From the sequence record NC_049438.1: a stretch of DNA of 64,000 bases; one strand, given 5' to 3'. The stretch's first letter is position 1. Each line of letters begins with the position of its first letter. The notes beneath the pieces are model-generated. The model made no database searches. It had not been told where the DNA came from and saw only the letters and a program-made list of their open reading frames with translations. The position numbers and the translations under genes are program-made. This DNA is from Acinetobacter phage vB_ApiM_fHyAci03. This document shows, in pieces, positions 42,720 to 45,222 of this stretch.

Positions 42720-42821
42720 ATTTCCTCCAAGGAATATGGTGGAGTGTGATGGAATTGCACCATCCTAATCCTGCTCTTCAGGCAAGCGCTAATCTATCTC
42801 AGCTAACACTCCAAAAGTAAA

Positions 42822-43183: not shown

Positions 43184-43268
43184 TGGAACCGCAAGGAGGA
43201 ATCGAACCTCTCACTTCCTTCCCACTTTTTAAGTATCTGCTTAGAAGGCAGATGTGGGGACATGCGGC
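43184..43268 (-). tRNA. aberrant tRNA-like element with UCU (Arg) anticodon hairpin, no recognisable D arm
   Basis: Intact T arm (GGTTCGATTCC), acceptor 3' strand + CCA, anticodon stem-loop TCTGC-CTTCTAA-GCAGA, but only ~10 nt between acceptor and anticodon stem; 85 nt. Confidence 0.35.
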
Positions 43269-43282
43269 TTAAATTCTTAAAG

Positions 43283-43353
43283 TTCTGGCACGAGGAATCG
43301 AACCTCGGTGACTGGAGTACAAAACCAGCATAATACCACTATATGATGCCAGA
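43283..43353 (-). tRNA. tRNA-Thr (anticodon UGU), CCA not encoded
   Basis: Hand fold: perfect 7-bp acceptor TCTGGCA/TGCCAGA, anticodon loop TTTGTAC, T arm CGAGG-TTCGATT-CCTCG. Confidence 0.7.
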
Positions 43354-43666: not shown

Positions 43667-44233
43667 TCAGTCGATAACGATTGTAGGATTTGTTTCAGTT
43701 AAAATTGCATCGAATTCAAGATCGAAGAAATCAATTGTAGATTTGAGCTCATCAATTTGTTCTTGAATTTCCATAATTGTAGGTTTTTCTCGTTTTTCCA
43801 TTAATTGCTTGAGCTCATCATCATGTGCGGCTTTAGACAATTTAACTTCATAATCACGTTCGATGTTAGCAAATGTAGCACGAGCACTAGCTAGCTCTTT
43901 AACTAAACGTGTATACAAAGCTTTAAGTCGAGGTAAAATATGTGTACGATACGTTAATGCATCGTTGATAGACATTTGTTCTTTGCCTACGGTTACCATC
44001 GTTTCAAAATTTGCTTTATTGACCTTTTTGCGAAGATCGAATTCTGCATCAAGTTTGTCTTTAATCGATTGAATGTTTTTGCGAGATTTGTCAACAAATT
44101 CAGCAGTTTTGATTCCAGTGCTAATCTCTACACCATTACGGAATACACCACAGAATGTCATTTCACGAAGATTTTCGTCGAAAGACACTTTGTTGCGTTT
44201 AAGTGTTACTAATGCACGAGCGATGGTAGTCAT
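43667..44233 (-). CDS. hypothetical coiled-coil protein (188 aa)
   Basis: ORF track; between tRNA sub-clusters. Confidence 0.55.
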   Translation of the reverse strand: MTTIARALVTLKRNKVSFDENLREMTFCGVFRNGVEISTGIKTAEFVDKSRKNIQSIKDKLDAEFDLRKKVNKANFETMVTVGKEQMSINDALTYRTHILPRLKALYTRLVKELASARATFANIERDYEVKLSKAAHDDELKQLMEKREKPTIMEIQEQIDELKSTIDFFDLEFDAILTETNPTIVID

Positions 44234-44309: not shown

Positions 44310-44546
44310 TTACGAATAAGTTTGTGTTGGTTCATAAAATAAACGTTCTTTCAACATTCTATCGAGCTTTGCAATTGCGGCAGATCGATTAAGGTACTGT
44401 GAACGTTTATTTGCACTTTCAGCAATTAAACCAGTCGGTAAATGAGTAACACGTACTGCATTAAAGGGGCGATTGACCCATCGACGTGCACCACTTGTTC
44501 TATACTCATCAATTCTCAATTCACTGGGTTTGAATGAATAATCCAT
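44310..44546 (-). CDS. release-factor catalytic-domain (RF/ArfB-like) mini-protein lacking GGQ
   Basis: 78 aa; SGARRWVNRPFNAVRVTHLPTGLIAESANKRSQYLNRSAAIAKL aligns to class-I RF GGQ domain ([35 protein letters not shown]) with GGQ replaced by RRW. Confidence 0.55.
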   Translation of the reverse strand: MDYSFKPSELRIDEYRTSGARRWVNRPFNAVRVTHLPTGLIAESANKRSQYLNRSAAIAKLDRMLKERLFYEPTQTYS

Positions 44547-44559
44547 ATCAATATTCTCA

Positions 44560-44802
44560 TTACTTCAATTTAATTTTGGCTTCAAATACGTAGCGATAAT
44601 TGTTATCACATAATATTTCAGCTCGTTCATATGTTGTGGCCATTCGCAATACTGCTCCAGTATATGAAACGATTGCAAAAACACAATCAGTTGAATCCGG
44701 TGATGCGATATCACCAACTTTAAAACGAAGTTTTCTATAAGTATATTTATCATCATACTTACATAAGAATTTGGCTAAACTTAACGAGAATGTGAATCTC
44801 AT
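44560..44802 (-). CDS. hypothetical protein (80 aa)
   Basis: ORF track. Confidence 0.4.
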   Translation of the reverse strand: MRFTFSLSLAKFLCKYDDKYTYRKLRFKVGDIASPDSTDCVFAIVSYTGAVLRMATTYERAEILCDNNYRYVFEAKIKLK

Positions 44803-44907
44803 AACTTTACCGTCTTCGTTAAAAATTCCATAGATGCTTCGTTGAGAAGTTTTATCTATGCAGTTTCGACAGATCTAATGTTTCATATTTATCCTCATTA
44901 AATTAAA

Positions 44908-44985
44908 TGGTACATGACCTCGGACTCGAACCGAGAGGCTCTTGTTTCTAAGACAAGAAGGTATACCAATTCCCGTCAGTCATGC
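44908..44985 (-). tRNA. tRNA with anticodon UAG (Leu codon CUA) but type-I (short variable arm) architecture; identity uncertain
   Basis: Hand fold: acceptor GCATGAC/GTCATGT (one GU), anticodon arm CTTGT-CTTAGAA-ACAAG, T arm CTCGG-TTCGAGT-CCGAG, CCA encoded; irregular D arm. Confidence 0.5.
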
Positions 44986-45064: not shown

Positions 45065-45140
45065 TGGAGACGTCGACTGGACTTGAACCAGCATCGTCAC
45101 GGATTTGCAATCCGTCGTATAACCATTCTACCACAACGTC
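45065..45140 (-). tRNA. tRNA-Cys (anticodon GCA)
   Basis: Hand fold: acceptor GACGTTG/CGACGTC (one GU), anticodon arm ACGGA-TTGCAAA-TCCGT, T loop TTCAAGT, discriminator T, CCA encoded; 76 nt. Confidence 0.65.
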
Positions 45141-45147
45141 TTAAACT

Positions 45148-45222
45148 TGGTGGGCCCAGGGAATTTCGAAATCCCAACCTTCAGATTATGAGTCTGCTGC
45201 TCTACCATTGAGCTACACGAGT
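45148..45222 (-). tRNA. tRNA-Ile/Met-like (anticodon CAU) with non-pairing acceptor stem; possible pseudo-tRNA
   Basis: Canonical D arm TAGCTCAATGGTAGAGC, anticodon loop CTCATAA, T arm GGGAT-TTCGAAA-TTCCC, 3' TGGGCCC-A-CCA; but 5' strand ACTCGTG cannot pair with 3' TGGGCCC. Confidence 0.45.

Follow-up and report, generated by a model that had tools for sequence, protein, structure and literature searches.

A stand-alone release-factor domain without the GGQ motif in the tRNA cluster of Acinetobacter phage vB_ApiM_fHyAci03

A release-factor domain encoded within a tRNA cluster

The DNA analysed here is a 64,000-nucleotide stretch of the genome of Acinetobacter phage vB_ApiM_fHyAci03 (NC_049438.1), which we refer to as the window. 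On its minus strand lies a short gene (44310..44546; ATG start, TAA stop) that appears in the open reading frame (ORF) listing and encodes a 78-aa protein, MDYSFKPSELRIDEYRTSGARRWVNRPFNAVRVTHLPTGLIAESANKRSQYLNRSAAIAKLDRMLKERLFYEPTQTYS, which resembles part of a bacterial release factor (RF) and which we call mini-RF. The gene sits inside a minus-strand tRNA cluster, with tRNA genes for Leu and Cys upstream and for Thr, Ser, Pro and Trp downstream, so that tRNAs are found on both sides of it, as described in the original prediction made for this DNA, to which the minus-strand orientation of the gene is a refinement.

The protein matches the Pfam RF-1 family (PF00472) over residues 4–67 with a score of 45.8 bits (E = 6.9e-12), above the gathering cut-off of 35 bits, and it matches PHROG 20323 over almost the whole profile (E = 3.3e-20; protein residues 5–73 on profile positions 2–72 of 73). 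When mini-RF is compared with the PDB using phmmer, the top match is E. coli RF2 residues 226–291 (E = 3e-13), followed by RF1, and identity to domain 3 of RF1/RF2 is 40–47% over ~65 residues. The profile search thus bears out the original prediction of a 78-aa protein built on the RF catalytic domain. The likeness to class-I RFs and ArfB that had been proposed alongside it stands for RF1/RF2 and is weak for ArfB, to which the phmmer match is marginal (E 0.055–0.08) and confined to the helix region. By sequence, the domain is of the RF1/RF2 type and not of the ArfB type, as the VRVTHxPTG motif is present and the ArfB insertion is absent. We conclude that mini-RF is a folded protein that stands alone and is homologous to the peptidyl-hydrolase domain (domain 3) of bacterial class-I RFs of the RF1/RF2 type.

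Nothing else of a release factor accompanies this domain. The NCBIfam scores of mini-RF fall short of the equivalog cut-offs for prfA (50.3 bits vs 423) and prfB (48.3 bits vs 370), and the protein belongs neither to PrfH (TIGR03072; 38.2 bits vs 166.65, with GGQ absent) nor to ArfB (NF006718; 16.8 bits against a cut-off of 100, with no GGQ, no inserted helix and no basic C-terminal tail). Domain 1 and the codon-recognition domains (2/4, with PxT or SPF) are absent from the 78 residues, and a tblastn search of the whole window with seven full-length RFs found the domain-3 stretch only and no other RF domain, which indicates that the domain stands alone. The idea that the gene is one piece of a longer, disrupted RF gene was considered and rejected, since the only tblastn alignment that reaches into the upstream ORF runs across a stop codon and is not supported by BLASTP.

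The catalytic motif of the domain has been lost. In the HMMER alignment, SGA-RRWVN of mini-RF lies opposite SGAGGQHVN of RF2, so that the loop is one residue shorter and has neither Gly nor Gln of the motif. The codons CGT CGA TGG (44478..44486, minus strand) encode Arg21, Arg22 and Trp23 in place of GGQ(H), and Trp23 occupies the position of the RF His that follows Gln; among 146 true RF domains, the conservation of these four positions is G 1.00, G 1.00, Q 1.00 and H 0.90. The replacement had been recognized in the original prediction, where the two renderings given for it, "RRW" and "Ala-Arg-Arg", differ by gap placement only. Two further landmarks identified by column conservation are VRVTHLPTG (residues 31–39; 44430..44456, minus strand), a beta2-turn motif specific to the RF1/RF2 type, and RSQYLN (residues 48–53; 44388..44405, minus strand), which starts the long helix and of which S49 and N53 are kept and Q50 is relaxed in the family described below. 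Both glycines and the glutamine of GGQ are required for peptide release (Frolova 1999, Mora 2003, and Shaw & Green 2007, cited in PMC6514570), which argues that mini-RF is almost certainly not a hydrolase. With GGQ and the surrounding catalytic loop both gone, the proposal of a catalytically dead domain agrees with what we find.

An AlphaFold2 model of mini-RF, built with a 30-sequence alignment, has a predicted local distance difference test score (pLDDT) of 84.7 and a predicted template modelling score (pTM) of 0.70, with lower confidence in the former GGQ loop (residues 16–29) and in the last seven residues. The model contains strands at residues 10–15, 30–35 and 41–44 and a helix at residues 50–71. 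A Foldseek search of the PDB with this model returns exclusively domain 3 of RF2, RF1, mtRF1 and PrfH, mostly in ribosome complexes. The top matches to RF2/RF1 domain 3 have template modelling (TM) scores of 0.7–0.8 and root-mean-square deviations (RMSD) of 2–3 Å, the best being 8p16 (RF2 domain 3; E = 1.2e-6, TM 0.78, RMSD 2.8 Å). The predicted structure, which superposes on ribosome-bound RF2 domain 3, thus has the domain-3 fold of a three-stranded sheet packed on a long helix, in keeping with the assignment made from the sequence.

Relatives of mini-RF in other phages

The fHyAci03 stretch places in the Lazarusvirus group (Straboviridae, Twarogvirinae) of T4-like Acinetobacter baumannii phages, with 96–99% nucleotide identity over 1.6 kb to DLP3, Berthold, KARL-1, Kimel and Lazarus. 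A tblastn search identified 37 phage records that encode a protein 98.7–100% identical to mini-RF. Over its ~52 synonymous and ~182 non-synonymous sites, the mini-RF gene of the window differs from that of Lazarus by 9 synonymous and 0 non-synonymous changes, from that of Kimel by 7 and 0, and from that of KARL-1 by 6 and 1; pairwise comparisons within Lazarusvirus give 5–9 synonymous and 0–1 non-synonymous differences. Judged by these counts, mini-RF is under strong purifying selection, Arg-Arg-Trp included. We also considered a sequencing error or frameshift that hides a GGQ, which had been named as a possible refutation of the original prediction, and rejected it: no single indel can restore the motif, the other two frames read VVHVDGS and WCTSMGQS, and the 37 genomes agree with one another.

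Orthologues in the same neighbourhood of four other Acinetobacter phage lineages, found in the survey of T4-like phages that the prediction had called for, also lack GGQ, and the loop is different in each. These are AbTZA1 (Hadassahvirus; 53% identity, GASNW), AB1I1T (~50%, KPTCM), ZZ1 (Zedzedvirus; 41%, HSNW) and Ac42 (34%, QGHY). In the Pseudomonas siphophage TehO / phage 73 group, the domain is found in Gp01 (GASAW), where 100 further residues follow it, and a fold search against viral models adds proteins of Acinetobacter phage 133 and of Vibrio, Aeromonas, Pseudomonas and Mycobacterium phages; a Pfam search of the extended homologues found no additional domains. A word-indexed protein search had found 2 proteins only, and homologues were gathered by profile search. 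When the family profile was run with HMMER against 1.84 billion representatives, 15,222 matches were obtained, mostly true RF1/RF2, and the phage family did not separate from them.

A column-by-column comparison of 146 true RF domains with 27 short, GGQ-less phage proteins distinguishes the parts of the domain that have drifted from those that have been kept. The positions S18, G19, A20, G, G, Q, H, N25, T27, S29, A30, V41, C44, Q45 and Q50 are conserved at 0.86–1.00 in true RFs, and all of these (the S18–A30 loop set, V41, C44, Q45 and Q50) are at 0.48 or below in the 27 phage proteins, where the loop ranges from 8 to 15 residues in length. Kept at 0.85–1.00 in the phage proteins are V31, R32, V33, T34, H35, G39, S49, N53, A57 and L61; within VRVTHxPTG the values are V 0.93, R 0.96, T 0.96, H 1.00 and G 0.96, and at the helix start they are S 0.89 and N 0.93, with Q at only 0.44 as compared with 1.00 in true RFs. 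RS..N..A..L is common to ArfB as well, whereas VRVTHxPTG is absent from it, and since ArfB has the same fold the latter motif is not merely a fold requirement. A Trp (or Tyr/Phe) recurs just after the former Gln (RRW, SNW, SQW, SSW, SAW, TAW, IGW, SGW and RTW), with Trp present at this position in mini-RF, AbTZA1, ZZ1, TehO and the homologues P0011, P0018, P0034, L020 and L044. This recurrent aromatic residue could be a new contact or the hydrophobic anchor of a collapsed loop.

In IMG/VR, a pattern-seeded scan found 47 viral loci that encode an RF-1 domain, in 31 of which GGQ is kept and in 16 of which it is absent; among the GGQ-bearing loci are full-length RFs, proteins like ArfB and a mini type with "GGQHVG". 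Syntenic loci of two related phages (65–88% nucleotide identity) encode orthologous fusion proteins that read VGGQRVG in L027/L028 and PRTWVG in L044. The existence of syntenic orthologues with and without GGQ indicates that phage mini-RFs have lost the motif on more than one occasion while retaining the core motifs. The fusion joins the RF mini-domain to a conserved C-terminal domain (EPHPDD.AVDKFAAMMKAKLA..; L044 9968–10600, L027 9959–10501), and the clade that carries it, on tRNA-rich contigs of 107–131 kb with a tRNA(CUA), is separate from the Acinetobacter phages. A metagenomic protein, P0055 (129 aa), is made up of two GGQ-less RF mini-domains in tandem, whose loops are very short, an arrangement which hints that RF mini-domains may act as dimers.

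From these data we are highly confident that mini-RF is a non-catalytic RF domain under selection, encoded by an accessory gene of the phage. The family itself has already been catalogued, as PHROG 20323 and, in RefSeq, under the name "RF-1 domain peptide chain release factor" in T4-like phages of Acinetobacter and in siphophages like Pseudomonas phage 73; what is new is its recognition as a non-catalytic, repeatedly evolved RF derivative. Its release-factor name is misleading, because the catalytic motif is absent in the family. The 37 records alone use the labels "RF-1 domain peptide chain release factor", "peptide chain release factor 1", "...2", "putative peptidyl-tRNA hydrolase" and "hypothetical protein", and dozens of genomes of Acinetobacter therapeutic phages and Pseudomonas phage 73-like phages carry "peptide chain release factor" or "peptidyl-tRNA hydrolase" labels that the sequence contradicts. 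No description of a GGQ-less phage RF domain was found in the literature searched, and the word "phage" does not occur in Burroughs & Aravind 2019. Among the search results, an unverified "Pseudomonas phage Y1" record (L006, OQ572403.1) gave a tblastn match that is a full-length, high-GC bacterial RF2 with GGQ; this record and several short "phage" contigs (Listeria, Staphylococcus, Salmonella, E. coli) look like host DNA.

The UAG-interrupted upstream gene and the amber-suppressor tRNA

The gene directly upstream of mini-RF is annotated as encoding 80 aa only (44560–44802; PHROG 29342 covers these last 80 aa), and it ends 13 nt ahead of the mini-RF start codon. When the sequence is read further upstream, the frame extends 28 codons beyond the annotated ATG to another ATG at 44886 (ATG AAA CAT TAG ATC TGT CGA AAC TGC ...), which gives a gene of 108 codons (44560..44886, minus strand) with an in-frame TAG at codon 4 (44875–44877) and a strong Shine–Dalgarno sequence, GAGGA, at 44892–44896. 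Its product reads MKH(stop)ICRNCIDKTSQRSIYGIFNEDGKV-MRFTF.... The arrangement is kept in Lazarus, Kimel, KARL-1, AbTZA1 and AB1I1T, as MKH(stop)ICR(N/K)C..., and in ZZ1, as MNK(stop)ICRKC.... Across four genera, the 24 codons from the TAG to the annotated ATG have proportions of synonymous differences (pS) of 0.52–0.86 compared with proportions of non-synonymous differences (pN) of 0.07–0.19, and a Ser within these codons is AGC/AGT in three genera and TCA in ZZ1, a clear sign of selection on the encoded protein. There is no ATG, GTG or TTG start between the TAG and the conserved stretch. The gene looks like a case either of programmed amber read-through by a phage tRNA(CUA) or of re-initiation at AUY, and no paper on it was found in the literature searched. 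In a window-wide scan for more TAG-interrupted genes, alternative-frame translations of conserved genes matched after TAA and TGA too, and the scan did not set TAG apart.

Within their tRNA cluster, at least four lineages of standard-code Acinetobacter T4-like phages keep a tRNA with the anticodon CUA, labelled tRNA-Pyl, TERM or Sup. It is present in Lazarusvirus, Hadassahvirus, Zedzedvirus and AB1I1T, and the annotators of ZZ1 termed it a "possible suppressor tRNA"; its positions in relatives are 16–90 in L007, 15–89 in L008, 1594–1668 in L001, 1562–1633 in L004 and 21200–21270 in L017. Ac42 has a mini-RF and lacks both the tRNA(CUA) and the UAG-containing gene. An RF-domain protein and a tRNA(CUA) also occur together outside Acinetobacter phages, in the syntenic pair L027/L028 (GGQ kept) and L044 (GGQ lost). 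Among the 47 IMG/VR loci, tRNA genes lie within 10 kb of the RF-1 domain gene in 20, and suppressor tRNAs (CUA or UUA) lie within 10 kb in 6, from about four lineages, where some of the RF-domain genes keep GGQ.

In the window itself, a tRNA scan places tRNA-Leu(UAG) directly upstream of the UAG-containing gene (44908..44985, minus strand), followed upstream by tRNA-Cys(GCA) (45065..45140, minus strand). Next to these is a chimeric tRNA-like element (45148..45222, minus strand) in which, by comparison with relatives, the 5' part derives from the amber-suppressor tRNA(CUA) and the 3' part from tRNA-Met/Ile(CAU). No pairing is possible in its acceptor stem, and ~84 bp are missing: in the 42 matching records, every full-coverage match is in two pieces that span 315 nt as compared with 231, and none is in one piece. 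The chimeric tRNA is probably non-functional, and the 84-bp loss is either a recent deletion by recombination between D-arms or an assembly collapse. If the deletion is real, fHyAci03 has lost the suppressor yet retains the UAG-interrupted gene.

Possible functions of mini-RF and its genomic surroundings

The repeated loss of the catalytic loop, with the RF1/RF2 core under selection, would point to a role in binding, directed either at the termination machinery of the host or at a factor by which that machinery is recognized. The reading we favour, to which we assign a probability of about 0.4, is that mini-RF acts on the ribosome as a non-catalytic binder of the RF domain-3 site on the 50S subunit. 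It would act by binding and not by hydrolysis, its likely partner being the docking site of RF domain 3 on the A-site side of the 50S subunit. By occupying or competing for this site, it could tune termination or peptide release during infection, and in the Acinetobacter phage group it might favour read-through of UAG by the phage suppressor tRNA. The surfaces formed by VRVTHxPTG and RS..N..A..L have been kept while the catalytic parts drifted, which suggests that mini-RF probably still engages a partner of RF domain 3. A role in modulating termination has circumstantial support from the suppressor tRNA of relatives and from the in-frame UAG of the gene 13 nt upstream. If correct, this would be a small, tractable viral means of acting on termination, on peptide release or on stop-codon read-through, and a bacterial-type counterpart to Dom34 and Balon. 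Of the other roles put forward in the original prediction, a conserved plug in the peptidyl-transferase centre (PTC) is unlikely, since the loop of the family is free in sequence and in length (8–15 aa). A block of host ribosome rescue is without support, and it would seem counter-productive for a phage that degrades host mRNA.

Several observations weigh against a binder of the 50S subunit. A GGQ domain by itself is not known to be a good ribosome binder. The net charge of the family ranges from -3 to +7 and the loop from 8 to 15 residues, so that no common RNA-binding surface is evident, and by its sequence the part that would reach the PTC is unconstrained. An occupant of the 50S A site would also hinder aminoacyl-tRNA, and a termination-selective effect is not obvious. 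The link to a suppressor tRNA is largely inherited synteny within one phage subfamily, and both Ac42 and the Pseudomonas phages carry a mini-RF without a tRNA(CUA). ArfB depends on a C-terminal tail to bind the ribosome (PMC3950681), and mini-RF has no such tail. In RF1/RF2, VRVTHxPTG may contact rRNA, the factor's own domains 2/4 or PrmC.

A more specific proposal is that mini-RF, the tRNA(CUA) and the upstream gene with UAG at codon 4 form an amber-suppression module, with mini-RF as an anti-terminator. In such a module, mini-RF would compete with domain 3 of RF1/RF2 as the latter accommodates on the 50S subunit, or put the host RFs out of action in another way, so that the suppressor tRNA wins at UAG. 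We regard the complete module as very doubtful; were it real, it would amount to a switchable, partial stop-codon reassignment in a standard-code host. Together, mini-RF, the suppressor tRNA and the UAG-interrupted neighbour open programmed amber read-through to a direct test in a T4-like phage with the standard code. T4 Cef, a "modifier of suppressor tRNAs", was considered as a relative of mini-RF and rejected, as no T4 match was obtained in tblastn or in the viral fold search.

Comparison with known systems helps to place the protein. Like domain 3 of RF1/RF2, mini-RF has three strands and a long helix, VRVTHxPTG and RSQ..N..A..L; unlike the full factors it has no domains 1, 2 or 4 and cannot read a codon, and it has lost the SGAGGQHVN.T.SA loop. 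ArfB (YaeJ)/ICT1 is, as mini-RF is, a small stand-alone protein built on the release-factor peptidyl-hydrolase (RF-PH) domain, but ArfB has GGQ, an inserted helix and a basic C-terminal tail, none of which are found in mini-RF. Closest in kind are bacterial-type RF derivatives that have lost GGQ and have been kept for other roles: PrfB3 (PMC5897788), MRPS35 (PMC6514570) and Microchloropsis mtRF2a (PMC13449250). These are highly divergent eukaryotic organelle proteins, full-length or with extra domains, whereas mini-RF is a bare domain whose RF1/RF2 core is strongly kept. Closest to the proposed mechanism, by analogy only, are Dom34/Pelota (PMC6514570) and Balon (PMC10901736), factors of the aeRF1 superfamily that occupy the ribosomal A site without GGQ. 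They differ in fold and ancestry (archaeo-eukaryotic RF, RNase-H-like domain), are multi-domain and are delivered by a GTPase.

Among the rival explanations, the one implied by the database labels (a catalytically active release factor or peptidyl-tRNA hydrolase) is extremely unlikely: its sole support is the Pfam RF-1 match that underlies those labels, while GGQ is absent with both Gly replaced or deleted, neighbouring RF-invariant residues are lost as well, the codon-recognition domain and the ArfB tail are lacking, and the NCBIfam scores are far under the equivalog cut-offs. That the gene is a functionless, decaying remnant of a captured host prfA/prfB fragment, or a sequencing artefact, is barely credible. 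The protein is short, its motif is degenerate and the tRNA region is recombination-prone, with a tRNA deletion in the window itself; however, the excess of synonymous over non-synonymous differences among close relatives, the 37 records with a near-identical protein, the intact orthologues (34–53% identity) with core motifs kept in other genera and in Pseudomonas phages, and the confident predicted fold all speak against decay.

The remaining two rivals accept a selected, non-catalytic domain and give it another partner. In one, mini-RF would be a protein decoy that mimics RF domain 3 and titrates PrmC, domains 2/4 of host RF1/RF2 (thereby disturbing their switch from closed to open) or an effector of host defence by which RFs are sensed or targeted. 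The VRVTHxPTG motif is specific to codon-dependent RFs and absent from ArfB, and could for that reason be an inter-domain or protein-contact surface; a structure of the PrmC–RF1 complex exists (2b3t), and the tandem domains of P0055 would also suit a decoy. PrmC, however, recognizes the GGQ loop, precisely the part that is variable or deleted in mini-RFs, and RFs that are already methylated would be expected to outlast a short lytic cycle. The GGQ-less protein P0030 is encoded 287 bp downstream of an Acb2/Tad1 hairpin-domain gene on a phage-like contig (L013 5478–5714 and 6001–6207). Acb2/Tad1 is a family of anti-CBASS/anti-Thoeris sponges. Other metagenomic GGQ-less homologues lie within small early or accessory gene blocks of diverse phages, most of them without a nearby tRNA, one adjoining vs and rI as in Ac42 and another in a replication module. 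Against this, no conserved partner gene accompanies the family across lineages, and PADLOC, with its host defence models, gave no match for mini-RF. We consider a decoy unlikely. The other rival is an RNA binder acting away from the ribosome, on tRNA (acceptor end or precursor) or mRNA, which by analogy with PrfB3 might mature or protect the surrounding phage tRNAs; this, too, is unlikely. In its favour are the location within a tRNA cluster in five Acinetobacter phage lineages and the tRNA genes close to 20 of the 47 IMG/VR loci, together with the net charge of +6 of mini-RF and the aromatic residue that recurs after the former Gln position, but the charge is not conserved across the family, and TehO, L010, L013 and L016 have the domain with no tRNA gene at all. 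The tRNA regions of T4-like phages are, moreover, general sites for accessory genes. A precedent for an RNA binder is PrfB3, an RF2 homologue without SPF and GGQ that protects petB mRNA (PMC5897788).

Downstream of mini-RF is a gene for a 188-aa protein (43667..44233, minus strand; PHROG 1491), predicted by AlphaFold2 to be a helical bundle (pLDDT 85.5), which adjoins mini-RF in Lazarusvirus, AbTZA1 and AB1I1T as well. Sequence and fold searches gave as the best PDB match 3kdq, a protein of unknown function, at a non-significant E of 0.11, and the label "tail fiber protein" that RefSeq and PHROGs give to this neighbour looks unsupported. The first tRNA downstream of the protein-coding trio is tRNA-Thr(UGU) (43282..43353, minus strand; tRNA scan). 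Rfam detects two further tRNA-like elements that ARAGORN missed, at 42740–42812 and 43187–43269, both on the minus strand. One of the two scores 49 bits, and the other is long-armed and matches tRNA-Sec at 31.7 bits, below the family threshold; in the equivalent region of AbTZA1, pseudo-tRNAs are annotated.

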